From positions 1 through 17,384 of the IMG/VR virus record IMGVR_UViG_2675903433_000036: a stretch of DNA of 17,384 bases; one strand, given 5' to 3'. The notes beneath the pieces are model-generated. The model was not told where the DNA came from, searched no databases, and saw only the letters and a program-made list of their open reading frames with translations. Source of the stretch: a virus. Lineage: Duplodnaviria; Heunggongvirae; Uroviricota; Caudoviricetes. This document shows positions 754 to 15,853 of the stretch, in pieces (position 1 is the first letter of the stretch; each line of letters begins with the position of its first letter). The position numbers and the translations under genes were made by a program.

Positions 754-829
754 TGGCGCGTTGTACTGGATTCGAACCAGCGACCTGGCGATTATGCGTC
801 GCTCGCTCTCACCACTGAGCTAAAGGGCC
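754..829 (-). tRNA. tRNA-Ile2-like (CAU anticodon, ileX/ileZ-like) element, probably a degenerate pseudo-tRNA
   Basis: Minus-strand 76-nt sequence GGCCCTT-TA-GCTC-AGTGGTGA-GAGC-G-AGCGA-CGCATAA-TCGCC-AGGTC-GCTGG-TTCGAAT-CCAGT-ACAACGC-G-CCA has canonical D and T arms (GTTCGAATCC) and a CAT anticodon. The 3' acceptor strand ACAACGC does not pair with the 5' GGCCCTT, and position 33 is G rather than the near-universal U. Confidence 0.45.
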
Positions 830-2890: not shown

Positions 2891-3046
2891 TTACTCCTCA
2901 GGTTCGTAAGCTGTGAAGACAGCGACCTCCGTCTGGCCGGTTCGGATTCGTACCTCGCAGAGGTCTTTCCTCGTTACCAGTGCCGTCACTATGACGGTTA
3001 AACAGATGACGATCAGGGCGACTAACATCGCCTTTTGCTGCTTCAT
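2891..3046 (-). CDS. hokD: Hok/Gef-family membrane toxin (type I toxin), HokD/RelF-like
   Basis: 51 aa, MKQQKAMLVALIVICLTVIVTALVTRKDLCEVRIRTGQTEVAVFTAYEPEE: single TM helix plus the conserved C-terminal hok motif, nearly identical to my recollection of RelF/HokD. SD AAGGAG 9 nt upstream of ATG at 3046. The 70-aa ORF-track version is an in-frame upstream extension. Confidence 0.85.
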   Translation of the reverse strand: MKQQKAMLVALIVICLTVIVTALVTRKDLCEVRIRTGQTEVAVFTAYEPEE

Positions 3047-3225
3047 AGCCTGCTTCTCCTTGCCTTTCGGCACGTAAGAGGCTAACCTACGTTTGTGAAG
3101 CATAGATTGGGCCTCAGATTAATGTTAAGCGTCTTGCAGGACGCGTAATGTTAACTGGGGCTTTTCTCTATCTGCCTTTTGGTGTTCATGCCTGAGGCAG
3201 ATAGCCTCAAGCACCCATTATGATT

Positions 3226-4347
3226 TTAACCAAAGTCTTTGTATCTATAAAGAGGCACAATATTACTCGATATATCATCATGTGTGCGCCTTATTCCAAA
3301 CATTTTGGAAACAAAGCGTTCCCTCACTCCCGACATATCCAGTATCTGCTTCCAAGAAGATATATCCAGCAATTCAACTGCACAGGAAAGTAAGCGAGGT
3401 TTTTCCTCAGGGATTAACTCATCCCCCATCTCTCCTTTAATCGTCCCTCTTTTATTTAGATGGATAAATCCCGTTCTCATTTGTTGTGGCGTAATCAGCC
3501 CCAAAACCGTAGCACGATAAATACACATGCGAAGACTGATTTTCCATCGTTCTTTGAAATTAATTAGTGCATTCCAGTCAAGATGCGATCCTCGCATTTT
3601 AGGAAATTCATTAACGAACGAAACTCTAGGTACAAGGAATGCGCTCGAAAAATAATCCGCATGATGTTCTGTAATTTTATCCCCTGTTATAATCCCTTCA
3701 TGCAAAACAAGATGCCCCAGTTCATGACCGAGATCTGAGCGAAATCGACACACACTCTTTTTCGCGGAATTTCTAATTATCAATGGGCGTTTACTATTAA
3801 TAGTAAACGCATCAATACGATCATCCACGCCAGATACATGAGCAACAACAACCCCAATACTTTCCACGAAATTAACCATTGAAGATATCGGTCCCAGCCC
3901 CAAACCCCAATACCTTCTACAGGCCTCGGCAATTCTTTCAATATCTTCATCGGAGTTCAAAGGTAATCCGGACGTATCAGGAAAGTTCAATTCTGGAAGA
4001 ACTATTTCTGTTTCCAAACACTTTACAAACTGCTCCAAAATTTCAGCTCGAGCCAGAATACTATTAGTTAAGGACTGCGTCCTTGATCTCTTGCTTCTGA
4101 AATGGCAGTTCTCGCTGTCTAATGGTGATTTCCTTCCAGTGAAGAAAAACGACTCTTTAACATCCAGATAATCTGCAAGAGCTGTCAACATCTGAGATGA
4201 AGGGGGATAACCACGCTCTAACTTGTTTATAAATTGCCGAGTCACCCCCAAAGCAGTAGCAAGCTCTTCGCCCGTAACCCCTTTAGCCTGACGAGCTAAT
4301 TTTAAGCAGTCACCACGATAATTACCTATAGAATCAAATAGTTCCAT
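3226..4347 (-). CDS. HTH_XRE DNA-binding domain fused to ImmA/IrrE-type (COG2856, HExxH) zinc metallopeptidase, with a C-terminal domain of unknown function
   Basis: N-terminal XRE helix-turn-helix (LKLARQAKGVTGEELATALGVTRQFINKLERG), a central HELGH zinc-binding motif (SDLGHELGHLVLHEG) and about 150 further residues. Start is uncertain (ATG 4347 or 4374, GTG 4383), none with a strong SD; the frame overlaps the upstream gene by 14-50 nt. GC about 37-40 percent against about 48-52 percent in the flanks. Confidence 0.75.
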   Translation of the reverse strand: MELFDSIGNYRGDCLKLARQAKGVTGEELATALGVTRQFINKLERGYPPSSQMLTALADYLDVKESFFFTGRKSPLDSENCHFRSKRSRTQSLTNSILARAEILEQFVKCLETEIVLPELNFPDTSGLPLNSDEDIERIAEACRRYWGLGLGPISSMVNFVESIGVVVAHVSGVDDRIDAFTINSKRPLIIRNSAKKSVCRFRSDLGHELGHLVLHEGIITGDKITEHHADYFSSAFLVPRVSFVNEFPKMRGSHLDWNALINFKERWKISLRMCIYRATVLGLITPQQMRTGFIHLNKRGTIKGEMGDELIPEEKPRLLSCAVELLDISSWKQILDMSGVRERFVSKMFGIRRTHDDISSNIVPLYRYKDFG

Positions 4348-4984
4348 ATTTATCACTATCTGCTTTTTTCGCATTCTTAACACGCCGCTGCAAATTCAGC
4401 GGTGGTGTTTCCACGGCCTCTGGCAATACGTCAGTATTAGCTGCTTGTACTGGAGCATGGACTTTAGACACCAATTCGTATCTACTCACTACATTATTTG
4501 ATGAATCAAAACCTATCAGGGCTAAAAGCCACGTTGGAGGTTCAATATCTTCATCTTTTTTATTTGCAGATGGTAATTTTTCAGCCAGAACACGCCATGT
4601 AACATCATGTTCAAAATTAACATCATCTTCAAAAAGAGATAACTGACGACACTCAACATCATTTTTACATAAGCGATGTTTCTTTTTTGGTGAATCCAGT
4701 TTATCGGTCACAAACTGTAACGGCACCCTGTTCAGGGTAAACACAAAATTCAGAGGTGTTGAAAGAATCGCCACTCCTTTGAGTTTTTTATGATTTTTTA
4801 CAAGAAAGTTTTTTATCCATCCATAGGCCCTACATCCATTAATCCAGTTATCATCATACTCATGGCGATGGAACCATAATTCGCCAAGTACGTTAGCAAA
4901 TTGCTGAAGAAGATTGATAACAGATTTTTCATCCAAACAAGGATTGATTTCAAAACACGGTTGGAGATTCTGTTCAGACGGCAT
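4334..4984 (-). CDS. hypothetical protein (216 aa), first gene of the AT-rich two-gene cassette
   Basis: ATG at 4984..4982 with SD AGGGA about 7 nt upstream (MPSEQNLQPCFEINPCLDEK...); the ORF-track start at 5026 is a TTG. No motif recognised. AT-rich like its partner. Confidence 0.65.
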   Translation of the reverse strand: MPSEQNLQPCFEINPCLDEKSVINLLQQFANVLGELWFHRHEYDDNWINGCRAYGWIKNFLVKNHKKLKGVAILSTPLNFVFTLNRVPLQFVTDKLDSPKKKHRLCKNDVECRQLSLFEDDVNFEHDVTWRVLAEKLPSANKKDEDIEPPTWLLALIGFDSSNNVVSRYELVSKVHAPVQAANTDVLPEAVETPPLNLQRRVKNAKKADSDKYGTI

Positions 4985-5138
4985 AAGGTATCCCTCTCTC
5001 TTAAAACTCCGCTCATCTTTACGCAAAATTTTATTTTTGTAAACCTAATCTTTAGGGGATTTCACGAATTCGTCAACCAGTCGAACAAACTTTAACCACA
5101 ATACATATTTATCTACATTGATATGTGTATCGCTAACA

Positions 5139-5369
5139 CTATTGTGGGCATTCAGCTAGTATTACCAAGCCTTCAGGTGCGCGAAGTTGTTCCGCACAGT
5201 GCAGCAGCGCATCAGTCGCTTCCTTAAGCGTCACAGTGTCGCCATCACCCAGTCCTGCAATTTTTGCGTGCCTGACAAACGCCGCGCAAAGGTCGTTAAA
5301 CGCCCCTGCCCGCACATCCGCCAGGAAAGCGTTGGCAGCAGCCAAATCCTGGTAGTCAATCCCGCTCAC
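5139..5369 (-). CDS. hypothetical small phage protein (76 aa)
   Basis: GTG start at 5369 with a strong SD (AGGAGGTG) and a GTGA overlap with the upstream stop; MSGIDYQDLAAANAFLADVRAG... Confidence 0.5.
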   Translation of the reverse strand: MSGIDYQDLAAANAFLADVRAGAFNDLCAAFVRHAKIAGLGDGDTVTLKEATDALLHCAEQLRAPEGLVILAECPQ

Positions 5370-8216: not shown

Positions 8217-8639
8217 TTAATGAACAATGACAGAATCTTCGGAAGACCCGCCGCCGCTGAAATGCGCTTTCCGGTAAACGGCCTGGACTGCATCATCATG
8301 CGCATCAATTGCCGTACTCAACGCTTCCTGCGCCGCCAGTAATGCACGGCGTTCCAGGGTATCGAAGATGCAGAGTCGGTGACGCAGCTCGCGCGGAATA
8401 ATTGCCAGAACCGCAGGGATCAGTTTCTGAATTTTTTCCCTTTGCGCTTTCGTTTCACCTTTCAACCAACGGTGATAGATATTCTGCTGATTGTTCCAGT
8501 CCTTGCCTGGTACCAGGGGCAATTCGCCGCCCCCCTGGCGCAGATATTCTTCAGTAATTGCGTTAGCGACCCACGCCTGCCCTTTTTCGGCTGCCAGGGC
8601 TAACAACACTGATTCGATGTGCTCATGCCTGATTTTCAT
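8217..8639 (-). CDS. ydaT: YdaT-like protein (reported toxin partner of YdaS in Rac-type prophages); occupies the cII position
   Basis: 140 aa, SD AGGAG 8 nt upstream of ATG 8639; overlaps the Cro-like gene by 17 nt. Symbol from recalled length and synteny. Confidence 0.6.
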   Translation of the reverse strand: MKIRHEHIESVLLALAAEKGQAWVANAITEEYLRQGGGELPLVPGKDWNNQQNIYHRWLKGETKAQREKIQKLIPAVLAIIPRELRHRLCIFDTLERRALLAAQEALSTAIDAHDDAVQAVYRKAHFSGGGSSEDSVIVH

Positions 8640-8898
8640 GAATCAACTCCTGTGCATTTGGTGTGTTAGCCTTACATCCAACAGGTAAACCATCGGTCGG
8701 ATTCGGGTAGATATCAGGCCGGAGTTCATGAGGTGTAACCTCGAAATTCGTTACTTCAGCAACACGTAATGCTTTTTCAGGGCTGAATCTTTCATAGCCC
8801 CCCAGCACTCGACTTACATGCACCTGAGATAAACCCGTTAGCTTCCCAAACTGTAACTGGGTGATATGTTTCTCTTTTAAATAGTCTCTTAAGTTCAT
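8623..8898 (-). CDS. ydaS: Cro-like HTH regulator (YdaS-type)
   Basis: MNLRDYLKEKHITQLQFGKLTGLSQVHVSRVLGG is an HTH. ATG at 8898 with SD GAAGG; first gene of the rightward operon, divergent from the repressor. The ORF-track TTG start at 8904 is less likely. Confidence 0.65.
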   Translation of the reverse strand: MNLRDYLKEKHITQLQFGKLTGLSQVHVSRVLGGYERFSPEKALRVAEVTNFEVTPHELRPDIYPNPTDGLPVGCKANTPNAQELIHENQA

Positions 8899-8928
8899 AG
8901 CCAACCTTCTACGTTATGCCTCGAACAA

Positions 8929-9005: not shown

Positions 9006-9467
9006 ATGAAAAAAACACGCGAAGTGATTGCAACTCCAGAAGCGAGCAAGAATTTAAAAGCCGCATGGAATGCAAGAAAAAAAGAGCTGAAGCTGACTCA
9101 AGAGCTGGCGGCTGAGTTGTTGGGATTCGAATCTCAAGGCACCGTTAGCCAGTATCTGAACGGCAAGATACCGGTAAATACCGACGCTGCGCTAAAATTT
9201 GCGGCTCTGTTAAAGGTAAAACCAGAGGACATTCGAGAAGACCTTAAAGACTTAATGAATTATGTAAGATCATCAGATACTTATGATGATAGCTTTTCAG
9301 GCAAAGGATGGAGGCTGGTCAATGAAGAACAGGCAGAGTTACTTAACCTCTTCGAGATTCTACCTGCGTCAGAAAAAGCCAAACTCCTTAACCAGCTACG
9401 TGGACTAAACAAGCTCTATGAGGAAGCCTTCGAGAACATGCTGGCACTAAAGAAACGTAACCAGTAG
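9006..9467 (+). CDS. racR: prophage repressor, XRE-family HTH, non-LexA-like (RacR-like)
   Basis: 153 aa; HTH LTQELAAELLGFESQGTVSQYLNGK; no peptidase S24 domain. Divergent from the Cro-like gene and followed by a terminator. Symbol is by analogy. Confidence 0.6.
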   Translation: MKKTREVIATPEASKNLKAAWNARKKELKLTQELAAELLGFESQGTVSQYLNGKIPVNTDAALKFAALLKVKPEDIREDLKDLMNYVRSSDTYDDSFSGKGWRLVNEEQAELLNLFEILPASEKAKLLNQLRGLNKLYEEAFENMLALKKRNQ

Positions 9468-9873: not shown

Positions 9874-10070
9874 ACAATTTATTGGATTAATTCAATATTC
9901 TTGCTGTAGGGGTATAGCCGAGGCCACCAAAGCCCGGAGGTGGTGAAATAAAACCGGGCACAACACGAAGGCGCATTTCCGATATCCATAAAGAGTCGGT
10001 CTTGTCTGTTAAATTTAAATGGTGGGAGTGCGCCTCCGGTTGTAAATAACGACATTGCTGTGTGTAGTCT

Positions 10071-10115
10071 TGGCGGCATCAGTTCTACTCCGTGGCTGCC
10101 CTGCCGCCCCTTTTT
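10071..10115 (+). terminator. terminator-like long-loop hairpin (tL1-like) within a 400-bp structured leader
   Basis: GGCGGCA (10071-10077) pairs with TGCCGCC (10103-10109), followed by CCTTTTTAAAG. Confidence 0.3.
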
Positions 10116-10578
10116 AAAGTGAATTTTGTGATGCGGTGAATGCGGCTGAGCGCACGCGGCACAGTTAAAAGCATCAGTGTTATGGGTGGATTATCCGGCG
10201 TTAATTGTTAACTGGTTAACGTCACCTGGAGGCACCAGGCACCGCATCAACAAAGTTCACTTCAGTGATGAAAGGTGAGAGAAAATGATGGATGTAGCTA
10301 TTGAAAACCAGAACGGGTGGAATTATAGTGCACCTGCACCTCATAAAACGGGTGCCGGGATTTGCACCCCGATGATCACTAGAGCGCATAACCGCGCCAA
10401 AGCGTTTTTTTTATGCGTAAAGCGCAGCCACATTCAGATTATGGTGGGGCGTATGGGGCCGTTTTCGGGCGGGCCGGATTCTCTAGTGACCGGTAGTGCA
10501 AACCCTGTACGTCTCACCACCCATGAGATTTGCACCTCCGGTGGTGAGTTTACCAACTTATCACTAGAGGCTGCCATC

Positions 10579-11133
10579 ATGGCTACTATCCCTACCCTTT
10601 CTCACCCTGACGTAACCATCGAAAATGGTCGTGCTGTCACTACGTCTGTTGCAGTTGCAGAGTTTTTCCGCAAGCTGCATAAAAACGTCATTCAAAAAAT
10701 TGAAGCTCTGGAATGTTCCTCAGAATTCACTGAGCTTAATTTTAAGCCAAGTGAATACACCGACTCAACCGGGCGCAAACTCCCAATGTACCAAATCACC
10801 AAAAACGGCTTCGTTTTCCTGGTGATGGGTTTCACTGGCAAAAAAGCCGCTGCATTCAAAGAGGCCTACATCGCTGAGTTCGACCGCATGGAAGCAGAGC
10901 TACGCCAGAATAATACCACTCCCACAAACAAAATCATTCCGGGCGATGGGCGCACTCTGGTTGTTCGCTTCGACAAATTCGGCAACGTCGAATTCACTGA
11001 AACCGTTCCTGATGGCGCTCTCGTCTGTACCCTGGACACTTTCCGCCTTTATCTGGAGAAACAGGGCTGGACTCTTGTAAACCGAAGCGCAATTAAAAAT
11101 ATGACCGTCGAGCAGTTGCTGAGTATTAAATAG
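10579..11133 (+). CDS. Rha-family phage regulatory protein (Phage_pRha domain)
   Basis: Matches my recollection of the Rha domain: AVTTSVAVAEFFRKLHKNVIQKIEAL...ELNFKPSEYTDSTGRKLPMYQITKNGFVFLVMGFTGKKAAAFKEAYIAEFDRMEA. Internal ATG 10579 with SD AGAGG is preferred; the ORF-track start at 10285 adds about 98 compositionally odd, repeat-containing residues. Confidence 0.65.
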   Translation: MATIPTLSHPDVTIENGRAVTTSVAVAEFFRKLHKNVIQKIEALECSSEFTELNFKPSEYTDSTGRKLPMYQITKNGFVFLVMGFTGKKAAAFKEAYIAEFDRMEAELRQNNTTPTNKIIPGDGRTLVVRFDKFGNVEFTETVPDGALVCTLDTFRLYLEKQGWTLVNRSAIKNMTVEQLLSIK

Positions 11134-11651: not shown

Positions 11652-13682
11652 ATGAGTACTGATAAAGAAAATTACGCTCTGTATTGCGACGCGAAAAATG
11701 ATAAAACCAGAAAACGCCTCGGCATCAAAGGCGGCTTTTTCTGGACAGAGGCAAAAAAACTTTCTGTTGCGGTTTTACGCTGCATTGCTGCAATGGACGA
11801 TGCCGGATTTGACGAAGAGGATTTTAAAAAACCCATCCGCGTCCATTTACCCGTTGTGAATGACCTTCCACCGGAAGGTGTGTTTGATACTGAATTCTGC
11901 AACCGATACGAAAAAGGCGGAGAAGATGGTATCACAATGATACTTATCGCGCCCTCTCCCTCCGTGCAGGAGAAACCAGCCAGTACTGACAATACCAACG
12001 TCAACGGCGAAGACATGACGGAGATTGAGGAGAATATGCTCCTGCCGGTTTCTGGTCAGGAGCTGCCCATTCGCTGGCTTGCGCAACACGGCAGCGAAAA
12101 ACCAGTAACGCACGTTGCACGGGAAGAACTTCAGGCATTACATATAGCACGGGCGGAAGAACTGCCGGCTGTTACTGCCCTGGCCATTTCTCACAAAACA
12201 AAGCTGCTCGACCCGCTGGAGATTCGCGACCTTCACAAACTGGTACGCGACACTGACAAAGTTTTCCCTAATCCCGGTAATTCAGACCTGGGACTGATAA
12301 CTGCTTTTTTCGAGGCATACCTGGACGCTGACTACACTGATCGGGGTCTGCTGACAAAAGAGTGGATGAAAGGAAATCGTGTTTCGCGTATCACCCGTAC
12401 GGCTTCCGGTGCAAATGCCGGTGGCGGGAACAAAACCGATCGCAATCCGAATTTAGTACACACCTTCGATACGCTGGATGTGGAGATTGCAGCAGCCACA
12501 CTTCTGATGGATTTTAATATTTATGAAATTCCGGGCAGCGTTTATCGTCGCGCAAAAGAAATCGTCCTGAAAAGAGAAAGTCCGTTCAAAGAATGGTCCG
12601 CAGCACTTCGCGCAACCCCGGGTATTCTGGACTATTCCCGCGCCGCTATTTTTGCACTTATCCGGAGCGCTCACCCTGAGTTTTATCACTACCCGGGACG
12701 CCTTCAGGGGTATATCAACGCCTACTTAACGGAGACTGATCACGAGAACCCCAGCAAGGAAACTCTCACTGCTGCACGACATACACCGGAAAAAGATATC
12801 CTGGAAGAGGTTAACCGCGAACTGGCTGCTAAGCAGGAAACAGAAGAAGAAAATGATGAAGAAAAACCGCAACCATCTTGCGCAATGGCAGATGAACAGG
12901 CAACGGCTGAAACAGTGGAACCGGATGCAACTGAACATCATCAGGACACGCAGCCGCTGGATGCTCAGTCACAGGTAAATTCTGTTGATGCGAAATATCA
13001 GAAACTGCGGGCAGAACTCCATGAAGCCCGGAAAACCATTCCGCCCAAAAATCCTGTCGATGCCGACAAATTGCTGACTGCCTCTCGCGGAGAATTTGTT
13101 GAAGGGATTAGCGACCCGAATGATCCGAAATGGGTTAAGGGAATTGAAACCCGAGATTCTGTGAACCAGAACCAGCCCGAATCGGAACAAAACAACCAGA
13201 AAGCGGAACAAAACAGCCCAAATGCACAGAAAAACGAGCCAGAAACGAAACAATCTGAACCAGTAGCGCAACAGGAACCGGAAAAAGTCTGTGCCGCCTG
13301 CGGTCAGAGCGGCGGCGGCAACTGCCCTGATTGTGGCGCGGTGATGGGCGACACCACGTATCTGGAAACCTTTAATGAAGAAAATCAGAATGAATATCAG
13401 GAAAAAGGTCTGGAGGAAATGGAAGGTGCTGAACATCCGCACAAGGAGAACGATGGCAGCGATCCGCATCGCGATTGCAGTGATGAAACTGGCGAAGCAG
13501 CAGCTTCATCATTAGAAAAACTCGACTGGAAAAGACAAGTGGTGATTGCAGCGGTTTACGGTTTATGTGCAAATCCTGCGGGTATAGCCTCAGCGCCATT
13601 AATTCCGGGTATTGCAATGATGATTGCAAACAAACTTGAAAATTTTGGGGTGACGGATGATGAGTACATGCCCAATTTTTGA
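11652..13682 (+). CDS. large acidic protein of unknown function upstream of the Red genes (zinc-ribbon motif; possibly related to the RecE N-terminal region)
   Basis: 676 aa with SD GAGGT. Long Asp/Glu/Gln-rich low-complexity stretches, a [16 protein letters not shown] zinc ribbon and a hydrophobic C-terminal segment ([33 protein letters not shown]). Sits where racC-recE lie in Rac. No nuclease motif recognised. Confidence 0.7.
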
Positions 13683-13956
13683 TCGCATTGAAGAGCAGGC
13701 ATGGTCACGCCACTACCAGCAAATCGTTTGCGAAGAAAAAGAAACGGCGCTGGCGGACGACCTGGAAAAAGGTCTGCCCCAGCACCTGTTTGAATCGCTC
13801 TGCATCGACCATTTGCAACGCCACGGTGCCAGCAAACAGGCAATCAGTCGCGCATTTGATGACGATGTTGAATTTCAGGAACGTGTGGCGGAGCACATCC
13901 GGTACATGGTTGAAACCATTGCTCGTCACCAGGTTGATATTGATTCAGAGGTATAA
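13657..13956 (+). CDS. gam: Gam, host RecBCD nuclease inhibitor (lambda GamS-like)
   Basis: 99 aa, near-identical over most of its length to recalled lambda Gam (…RHYQQ…[24 protein letters not shown]…[12 protein letters not shown]…[12 protein letters not shown]…HQVDIDSEV). Confidence 0.9.
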
Positions 13957-13961
13957 AACGA

Positions 13962-14747
13962 ATGAGTACAGCACTTGCAACACTGGCCGGGAAGCTGGCT
14001 GAACGCGTCGGCATGGATTCTGTCGACCCACAGGAACTGATCACCACTCTTCGCCAGACGGCATTTAAAGGTGATGCCAGCGATGCGCAGTTCATCGCAT
14101 TGCTGATCGTCGCCAACCAGTACGGCCTTAATCCGTGGACGAAAGAAATTTACGCCTTCCCTGACAAGCAGAACGGCATCGTTCCGGTGGTGGGCGTTGA
14201 TGGCTGGTCCCGCATCATAAATGAAAACCAGCAGTTTGATGGCATGGACTTTGAGCAGGACAATGAATCATGTACATGCCGGATTTACCGCAAGGACCGT
14301 AATCATCCGATCTGCGTTACCGAGTGGATGGATGAGTGCCGTCGCGAACCATTCAAAACCCGAGAAGGCAAAGAAATCATCGGACCATGGCAGTCGCATC
14401 CCAAACGGATGTTACGGCATAAAGCCATGATTCAGTGTGCCCGTCTGGCCTTCGGATTTGCTGGTATCTATGACAAGGATGAAGCCGAGCGCATTGTCGA
14501 AAATACCGCATGCACTGCAGAACATCAGCCGGAACGCGACATCACTCCGGTTAACGATGAAACCATGCAGGAGATTAACACTCTGCTGATCTCCCTGGAT
14601 AAAACATGGGATGACGACTTATTGCCGCTCTGTTCCCAGATATTTCGCCGCGACATTCATGCATTGTCAGAACTGAAACAGGCCGAAGCAGTGAAAGCTC
14701 TTGGATTCCTGAAACAGAAAGCCGCAGAGCAGAAGGTGGCAATATGA
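13962..14747 (+). CDS. bet: Bet (Red-beta) single-strand annealing protein
   Basis: 261 aa, near-identical to recalled lambda Bet ([89 protein letters not shown]...). Confidence 0.92.
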
Positions 14748-15424: not shown

Positions 15425-15651
15425 GCGCAGCCATAAAGCTCACAGGAGAAAAACCAGTGCTATACACAAAAGTCAAACCATGTCCGTTTTGTGGTTGTCC
15501 ATCAGTAACGGTGAAAGCCATTTCAGGATATTACCGCGCAAAGTGTAACGGATGCGAATCCCGAACTGGCTATAGTGGAAGTGAAAAAGAAGCACTCGAA
15601 AGATGGAATAAACGAACTACTGGAAATAATAATGGAGGTGTTCATGTATAA
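15415..15651 (+). CDS. ralR: Lar/RalR-like restriction-alleviation protein (zinc-ribbon, CPFCG motif)
   Basis: [47 protein letters not shown] matches my recollection of the Lar family. Start at 15415 or 15421, the latter overlapping the exo stop. Confidence 0.5.
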
Positions 15652-15853
15652 AATTACTGTCACTATTGAAAAGGAAGGTGGCACTCCTACTAACTGGACA
15701 AGATATTCAAAATCTAAATTAACGAAATCAGAATGCGAAAAAATGCTCTCTGGGAAAAAAGAAGCAGGCGTTTCCAGAGAGCAGAAAGTAAAACTGATAA
15801 ATTTTAATTGCGAGAAACTTCAGTCCTCGAGAATTGCATTGTATTCAAATTAA
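15644..15853 (+). CDS. ydaC: small hypothetical protein (YdaC-like, 69 aa)
   Basis: ATG 15644 preceded by GGAGGTG; [35 protein letters not shown]... AT-rich. The ORF-track 92-aa version begins upstream in the overlap with the Lar-like gene. Confidence 0.45.
   Translation: MYKITVTIEKEGGTPTNWTRYSKSKLTKSECEKMLSGKKEAGVSREQKVKLINFNCEKLQSSRIALYSN

Follow-up and report, generated by a model that had tools for sequence, protein, structure and literature searches.

The viral sequence IMGVR_UViG_2675903433_000036 (Caudoviricetes; 17,384 nt, here called the window) is the early region of a lambdoid prophage similar to Rac. Two overlapping genes on its minus strand, rmrT (4334..4984, with its ATG at 4984) and rmrA (3226..4347), encode a predicted toxin of 216 amino acids (aa) and a predicted antitoxin/repressor of 373 aa, the latter composed of an XRE helix-turn-helix (HTH) domain, an M78 (ImmA/IrrE) Zn-peptidase domain and a C-terminal domain. 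This cassette most probably represents a two-gene toxin-antitoxin (TA) module of the RosmerTA type, in the order rmrT then rmrA, which such a Rac-like prophage, located at ttcA in Shiga toxin-producing E. coli (STEC) and other E. coli, carries as a moron. The assignment is carried by a match to an RmrA profile, a match to an RmrT profile and the adjacent position of both genes on the same strand in one operon, which are the components by which a RosmerTA system (Rosmer in PADLOC, RosmerTA in DefenseFinder) is recognized.

Identification of the RosmerTA gene pair

To identify the two proteins, profile searches were done. The 373-aa protein gives a full-length match to the PADLOC RmrA model PDLC03943 with an E-value of 5.7e-107 (356 bits; residues 10-352 aligned to positions 2-345 of the 370 in the profile) and matches 13 further PADLOC RmrA models, whereas the matches to capP (E 1e-11, 43 bits) and capH (E 0.0016) are far weaker. 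For the 216-aa protein the PADLOC RmrT model PDLC03929 was found, likewise over the full length, with an E-value of 1.4e-18 (65 bits; residues 12-212 aligned to positions 9-197 of the 198 in the profile). In the PHROG collection the two proteins belong to PHROG 2439 (E 3.2e-118) and PHROG 5786 (E 6.6e-72), respectively. The window RmrA shares 30% identity over 296 aa (E 2e-36) with the RmrA of E. coli OLC-716, which has been verified experimentally.

An initial annotation of this DNA had described two overlapping minus-strand open reading frames (ORFs) at these positions, which is correct and agrees with the coding sequences in RefSeq, and had taken them for a candidate undescribed defence or toxin-control module. 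The latter could not be maintained. The PADLOC check recommended there was run and returned the two models given above, the same RmrT model is matched by all 113 of 113 full-length relatives of the 216-aa protein (best E 3e-72), and the family was foreshadowed by the vmi480/vmi470 TA system of Vibrio. The pair is therefore one that the standard defence-finder profiles recognize, and a new member of RosmerTA. What did stand is the view of a mobile two-gene module of TA or defence type built around a protein with HTH and COG2856 domains, which is supported by the variable slot and the mobility of the pair described below.

RosmerTA was named by Millman et al. (2022; 10.1101/2022.05.11.491447), who validated the E. 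coli system at 37 °C and showed that it defends E. coli against phages. In the same study a construct lacking rmrA could not be transformed, possibly because of toxicity (10.1101/2022.05.11.491447). That one antitoxin family is paired with many toxin families is a known pattern (PMC10440598), and the finding that the OLC-716 RmrA is similar to the RmrA of the window while the OLC-716 RmrT is unrelated fits this pattern.

Domain architecture of RmrA and arrangement of the two genes

The XRE HTH domain of RmrA covers aa 12-70 (4138..4314, minus strand; Pfam HTH_3 E 5.8e-13 for aa 15-67, HTH_31 E 1.1e-09) and the Peptidase_M78 domain aa 162-279 (3511..3864, minus strand; PF06114 E 5.6e-13). The HELGH motif is intact (aa 208-212, nt 3712-3726) and is followed by EHHADYFSSAFLVP; downstream of it lies an E-x3-AD-x-F-x3-F-L-x-P motif, and the same metallopeptidase motifs are present in the verified OLC-716 RmrA. 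For the C-terminal domain (aa 280-373; 3229..3510, minus strand) there is no Pfam model. However, the PADLOC RmrA profile reaches residue 352 of the 373-aa protein, so this domain belongs to the architecture of the RmrA family. Thus the HTH domain, the peptidase domain and the HELGH motif of the initial annotation were confirmed, but its extra C-terminal fusion was not. RmrA was also considered as an equivalog of NCBIfam NF052239 (spr1629 family repressor/antitoxin); the match is full-length with 162.3 bits (E 1.7e-47) and does not reach the curated cut-off of 335 bits. NF052239 is a related antitoxin family, but RmrA is no equivalog of it.

The stop codon of rmrT and the start codon of rmrA overlap by 14 nt (ATGGAACTATTTGA, 4334..4347, minus strand), and the same overlap is kept in four close relatives (L004, L008, L015 and L016). 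Translational coupling of the two genes is therefore probable.

The cassette occupies a variable slot of the prophage

The cassette-specific acquired DNA comprises about 1.95 kb (3217..5171) with a GC content of 39.5%. On the left side many phages have homologous hok/sok loci up to 3216, 9 nt away from the stop codon of rmrA, and on the right side the homology of E. coli genomes without the cassette begins at 5172 or 5182. Among 5426 complete E. coli genomes the cassette is present in 31, always on the chromosome and with at least 99.6% identity, and the flanking hok and DUF977 DNA occurs in more than 4100 genomes. The cassette is thus a presence/absence polymorphism, horizontally acquired, in a variable prophage slot. 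A query of 2.6 kb, consisting of the cassette and its immediate flanks, was found with 100% identity in many STEC chromosomes, including O157:H7 and O103:H2, where RefSeq lists the same two genes as "hypothetical protein" and "helix-turn-helix domain-containing protein".

The GC content is 41.0% for rmrA, 37.9% for rmrT and 39.5% for the cassette with its upstream region, compared to 48.9% in the left and 50.6% in the right flank. The low GC content, earlier taken as a sign of recent acquisition, is therefore real but not restricted to the cassette, as the immunity region and the int/xis region also have only about 36-43%. The presence or absence among genomes is the stronger evidence for acquisition.

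To compare the locus across other prophages, the interval between the DUF977 gene (with the small gene) and hok was used. In K-12 Qin it holds relB-relE and in REL606 QueH together with a methyltransferase, while another O157:H7 prophage carries an alpha/beta hydrolase and phage HannyBb small hypothetical genes and a methyltransferase. Elsewhere small hypothetical genes, a methyltransferase with an IS66 element, ORF6N and DUF551 genes, or DUF4014, IS110 and DUF551 genes were found. Unrelated cargo in the same interval bears out the idea of a slot prone to cassette swaps.

Directly next to the cassette, at a distance of 9 nt downstream from the rmrA stop codon, the prophage has a complete type I TA locus, hok/sok (2891-3216, minus strand). 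Its Hok/Gef ORF matches PF01848 (E 1.8e-23), the Rfam sok model spans 3041-3216, and the whole hok/sok unit is thus retained in the window. The cassette indeed lies directly upstream of hokD in the same orientation, and the order relB-relE-hokD of K-12 Qin matches, in that a type II TA system lies directly upstream of hokD, in the same orientation, in a lambdoid prophage. However, the proteins are unrelated, and in Qin the hok homology stops at 3060, so that the leader/sok region is missing, whereas the window keeps the unit up to 3216. The claim that the cassette sits exactly in the relBE slot therefore applies to the variable slot and the analogous position, but not to the junction with hok. 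Because hok has kept its own sok/leader region, it does not depend on read-through from the cassette. A meaningful link to hok, which the initial annotation had implied, was not borne out, since the copies of the pair in Proteus, on plasmids and in other chromosomal loci are without hok. The hok/sok locus is an independent type I TA system and its link to the cassette incidental. A common operon of the pair with hok was rejected on the same grounds, the own sok control of hok and its absence from most other loci of the pair.

The gene pair in other genetic contexts and orphan rmrT genes

In most of the sampled proteobacterial contexts an RmrT homologue is directly followed by a gene for an HTH-M78 protein of about 370 aa, usually with an overlap. 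The pair was found in Proteus mirabilis prophages, where it has the same position between replication genes and DUF1367 but no hok, in a Tenebrionicola prophage, in a non-prophage island of an Enterobacteriaceae metagenome-assembled genome, in two metagenome contigs and on plasmids of Sphingobium, Massilia, Cupriavidus and Roseomonas, the plasmid partners being XRE or ImmA/IrrE proteins by annotation. As the order is kept beside unrelated prophage, plasmid and chromosomal genes, the pair is a self-contained mobile module that is independent of hok and of the immunity region. In one of the two metagenome contigs (L016, 3096-4729) a PRTase-CE gene and a NADAR gene directly precede rmrTA; these genes may be another conflict-system pair, and their position hints at a defence-island context.

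In addition, orphan rmrT genes without a neighbouring rmrA were detected (L021/L029 and L022, L023, L024 and L025). On the Roseomonas mucosa plasmid p3-AD3 (L021/L029; WP_265886982.1, with an ORF of 146 aa downstream) and in several metagenome contigs they are flanked by a DUF932 gene and a type IV secretion operon of the VirB type, and another orphan copy adjoins a transposase. The orphans keep the aligned conserved core residues of RmrT and are top scorers against the family profile. A second R. mucosa plasmid carries a normal rmrT-rmrA pair.

The RmrT family and its predicted structure

The initial annotation had seen no recognizable motif in the 216-aa protein. This holds for Pfam and NCBIfam, where no match was obtained, but not for PADLOC and PHROG, as shown above. 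A word-based search for relatives gave only 7 close clusters, whereas an exhaustive profile search gave 126 clusters at 50% identity, nearly all of about 200 aa, and a second profile search at least 509 clusters at 90% identity across the alpha-, beta- and gammaproteobacteria. None of the 113 full-length relatives has a convincing Pfam domain.

A structure model was calculated with AlphaFold2 from an alignment of the 113 sequences, an earlier model from 7 sequences having been mediocre (predicted local distance difference test score, pLDDT, of 64). The new model has a pLDDT of 88.2 and a predicted template modelling score (pTM) of 0.77. Its fold consists of two helices, three strands, two helices, three strands and an extended C-terminal tail. 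With a maximum of 1.2 in the Kyte-Doolittle plot (19-residue window) RmrT has no transmembrane segment, and it is predicted to be a soluble globular alpha/beta protein. Foldseek, one of the checks proposed earlier for the modelled protein, found nothing at E ≤ 1e-3 in the PDB and BFVD, and the only match of the family profile among the PDB sequences was a spurious one (E 0.9).

Conserved positions within the family are D44 (93%), R/K/Q90 (95%), D94/95 (about 95%), E111 (85%), Q114 (88%), R131 (85%) and E/D135 (78%). The model weakly resembles the restriction-endonuclease fold. Our leading guess, which we hold tentatively, is that RmrT may act on nucleic acid, and "nuclease-like" is meant as a lead, not as a classification. 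It can be speculated further, although we regard this as rather doubtful, that RmrT proteins of the PDLC03929 type are a new branch of the restriction-endonuclease fold, a non-canonical one whose active site is formed by D44, R90, D94, E111, Q114 and R131 instead of D...(D/E)xK. Their activity would then be directed against nucleic acid and gated by the protease-antitoxin, and the orphans beside type IV secretion operons would reuse it in conjugative plasmids, e.g., in establishment or anti-defence. If true, this would provide a biochemical mechanism for a large RosmerTA toxin family, with the at least 509 clusters given above.

A conserved promoter region upstream of rmrT

Upstream of rmrT a promoter-like element is located on the minus strand (5048..5076), with the -35 box TTGACG (5076-5071), a spacer of 17 nt and the -10 box AAAGAT (5053-5048). 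The arrangement TTGAC(A/G)-17-AAAGAT could be aligned in five loci outside the window (L008, L010, L015, L016 and L017), the RmrT proteins of which are 41-66% identical to the window RmrT; in Proteus the -10 box has the variant AAATAT. Owing to its weak -10 box the element escaped a generic promoter scan. The same region contains two direct-repeat copies (5015..5057, minus strand), CCCTAAAGAT (5057-5048) and GCGTAAAGAT (5024-5015), with starts that are 33 nt apart. L008, L015 and L016 each have two copies of the consensus GCGAAAAGAT, and in L010 the second copy is weaker. The spacing of 33 nt was counted by hand in L016 and the window, and the other loci are gap-free between the copies. These direct repeats are a candidate operator for the HTH domain of RmrA.

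The start codon of rmrT (ATG at 4984) is preceded at a distance of 6 nt by the Shine-Dalgarno sequence GAGGGA (4991..4996, minus strand). In comparison to the five homologous loci the window has 32 additional nt inserted between this start codon and the second of the AAAGAT repeats (4985-5026 region). The insertion supplies the strong GAGGGA sequence and leaves the ancestral start codon (ATG at 5016) out of frame. The ancestral ATG opens an overlapping ORF of 67 aa (4813-5016), which is probably meaningless.

As operator the initial annotation had favoured an imperfect inverted repeat at 5101-5130. The repeat is present as described, but its ungapped stem has only 6 bp, and at least one such stem occurs in 51% of dinucleotide shuffles; a comparable 8-bp repeat with a 2-nt bulge occurs in 22%. 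The repeat finder did not report it. It is at chance level and lies upstream of the conserved -35 box, outside the conserved promoter region, in sequence that cannot be aligned between related loci. Therefore, the conserved promoter with its direct repeat is the better regulatory candidate.

Comparison with known systems and proposed mechanism

Like the window cassette, the RosmerTA system of OLC-716 is a toxin-first two-gene operon from E. coli mobile DNA, with an antitoxin of similar size that consists of an HTH domain, an M78 Zn-peptidase domain (HExxH) and a C-terminal domain. However, the toxins are unrelated in sequence and have 239 aa in OLC-716 and 216 aa in the window. Vmi480 (VMD_06480; 198 aa), encoded on MGIVmi1 of Vibrio mimicus (Luo et al., 2015), kills E. 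coli when produced alone, the HTH/Zn-peptidase protein Vmi470 (362 aa) provides rescue, and vmi470 alone cannot be deleted (PMC4671572). The systems are alike in that a toxin of about 200 aa is encoded upstream of an HTH/Zn-peptidase protein of about 360 aa behind an own promoter, and the RmrT model PDLC03929 has, with 198 positions, the length of Vmi480. They differ in that vmi480 and vmi470 are 5 bp apart and part of a genomic island, whereas rmrT and rmrA overlap by 14 nt and are part of a prophage. Vmi480 was likened to RmrT by description, and no Vibrio mimicus entry surfaced in the cluster look-ups and the profile search of the RmrT family.

A prophage TA system of the same type makes clpP essential in E. 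coli E101 (Rousset, 2021; 10.1101/2020.05.25.114553), which suggests that proteolysis may take part in holding such toxins in check; its toxin (E101_02645, WP_001179380.1) was likewise likened to RmrT by description. RmrTA of the Gordonia phage Kita (Ernits et al., 2023) is, as in the window, encoded by a phage and has an RmrA antitoxin of the ImmA type. Its protection is narrow, being directed against Bas54 and Bas59 according to the text, whereas the legend of Figure 5 names Bas54 and Bas60 (PMC10440598). In contrast to the window RmrT, the Kita toxin has transmembrane segments and depolarizes the membrane; the lack of a transmembrane segment also distinguishes RmrT from Hok. No paper citing the two RefSeq accessions of the window locus was found.

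Based on the validated relatives vmi480/vmi470, RosmerTA of E. coli OLC-716 and RmrTA of phage Kita, the following mechanism can be proposed. One transcript from the TTGACG-17-AAAGAT promoter would carry both rmrT and rmrA, and translational coupling would keep the level of RmrA at or above that of RmrT, so that RmrT is neutralized by RmrA. The XRE HTH domain of RmrA would probably repress the promoter at the paired AAAGAT repeats. An infecting phage would upset this balance, either by a block of host expression or by a trigger acting on the peptidase or sensor part of RmrA. RmrT would then be freed and the infected cell arrested, and the lysogen population would be protected by abortive infection.

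Evaluation of the RosmerTA assignment and alternative explanations

Several points weigh against the assignment. Toxicity of RmrT and its neutralization by RmrA are predicted here from the relatives vmi480/vmi470 and from the rmrA deletion construct, and phage defence by the window pair is predicted from the OLC-716 and Kita systems, the only ones for which defence is known. No RmrT was found by tblastn in deposited phage genomes. In hhalign the RmrT family and the verified OLC-716 RmrT showed no relationship (probability 0.2%), and no sequence similarity of RmrT to any solved structure was detected; the role as a toxin therefore rests on position and profile membership. A canonical PD-(D/E)xK nuclease was considered and rejected, as only 33% of the family members have D at position 79 in beta2, where the window protein has N79, and beta3 carries R/Q/K90 and D94/95 but no ExK. 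Orphan copies are unexpected for an intrinsically lethal toxin; they may be neutralized by a different partner, or RmrT may not be intrinsically lethal, and they lower the confidence in a simple toxin model without overturning it.

The orphans with their conserved core residues between DUF932 genes and VirB-type operons, the weak resemblance of the model to a restriction-endonuclease-type fold and the fact that the sole verified E. coli RmrT is unrelated in sequence would also agree with an RmrT that is no toxin but a nucleic-acid-processing or anti-defence factor of mobile elements, with RmrA merely controlling its expression. We regard this as quite improbable. In 11 of 14 distinct contexts an HTH-peptidase gene directly follows the homologue (9 overlapping, one 25 nt apart in L026 and one inferred and unchecked in L018), the arrangement matches the vmi480/vmi470 TA system, whose upstream protein of about 200 aa is lethal, and a simple regulator would need no three-domain partner of 370 aa. 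A plain addiction or stabilization TA system, which keeps the prophage or a segment of it in the chromosome and has no anti-phage role, is an unlikely but more serious candidate. Vmi480/vmi470, with the same architecture, is characterized only as a TA system on a genomic island, the prophage already has the addiction-type modules hok/sok and RalR/RalA, and the TA system of the related E101 prophage was detected only via a clpP-dependent fitness effect. However, the tested RosmerTA systems protect against phages, one relative is located beside PRTase-CE/NADAR genes, the slot carries typical moron cargo, and addiction and defence are not mutually exclusive.

The combination of an XRE HTH domain and a COG2856/M78 metallopeptidase unites the two activities of ImmR/ImmA (ICEBs1), DdrO/IrrE and CapH/CapP, and RmrA might accordingly be a fused switch for prophage induction or for a neighbouring effector such as hok. 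The weak capP/capH matches and the prophage repressor (9006-9467, 153 aa), which judged by length and annotation apparently has no S24 peptidase, would fit. Such a switch is nevertheless hardly credible. The known systems are separate proteins that regulate their element or operon, whereas in the window the activities are fused, the partner is a toxin-like protein of the RmrT family and the pair is mobile independently. It travels with RmrT and not with the immunity region, from which it is separated by about 4 kb behind the replication genes, and its other locations include plasmids, non-prophage islands and Proteus prophages whose repressors are of the S24 type. Hok is controlled by a sok of its own and is missing at most of the other loci bearing the pair, and neither a CBASS-like nor another controlled operon adjoins. 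The capP and capH scores are marginal, with 356 bits for the RmrA profile against 43 bits for capP, and no evidence was found for a part of RmrA in prophage induction. A switch of the ImmR/ImmA or CapH/CapP type was thus rejected, and a RosmerTA-type TA module is the preferred interpretation.

Other features of the prophage

From right to left the window contains intR, xisR, ralR, recT, recE, kilR and a Rha-family gene, then the genes for the cI-like repressor and a cro-like protein (8623-8904) and ydaT, then an O-like replication gene, the DnaC-like ydaV, DUF1627 and DUF977 genes and a small ORF (5139-5369), and finally the two-gene cassette, hokD and DUF1367, DUF1364 and DUF1133 (Q-like) genes. 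In a genome with the same cassette ttcA adjoins a related mosaic prophage.

The apparent lack of an S24 self-cleavage domain in the cI-like repressor was judged from its length and the RefSeq annotation only. RacR is likewise without this domain. Induction of the prophage presumably proceeds via an antirepressor, and Rha and antirepressor genes are present in the window.

Beside hok/sok and rmrTA, RalR/RalA is a third TA module, its antitoxin small RNA (sRNA) RalA being located opposite ralR (15650-15828, minus strand; Rfam, 219.6 bits). A gene at 8217-8639 is annotated as a YdaT-family toxin. Within the 5' part of the Rha-family ORF (10285-11133) Rfam places isrK (10336-10412, plus strand) and the C4 antisense RNA (10437-10524, plus strand), with DicF (10059-10109) just upstream. 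The start codon of Rha may be mis-called, or the isrK and C4 RNAs may be processed from the Rha leader as in the immI region of P1.

At 487-677 and 764-823 (minus strand) an STnc100 sRNA match (138 bits) adjoins a weak partial tRNA match (Rfam, 37 bits, model positions 7-64), which was not called by ARAGORN; in the related prophage L001 a tRNA-Met is annotated at the corresponding position. The recE ORF of the window (11652-14002 region) encodes a protein of 676 aa, with short overlapping ORFs behind it, and recE of L001, a related STEC prophage, encodes 889 aa. Only patches of this region align between the two, with 92-96% identity. The window prophage is thus a mosaic relative, and its recE may have been truncated or recombined.

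Implications

In 31 complete E. coli genomes, including O157:H7 and O103:H2 STEC, the annotation of the two genes can be changed to a defence/TA pair of the RosmerTA family. The locus also provides another lambdoid prophage in which the interval from the replication genes to nin, next to hok, serves as an exchangeable slot for defence or addiction cargo. The remaining interest lies in the biochemistry of the soluble RmrT family, the peptidase target or signal of RmrA and the tolerance of orphan copies on conjugative plasmids. A defence module in this slot could affect the superinfection of lysogens by other phages, including Shiga toxin (Stx) phages.

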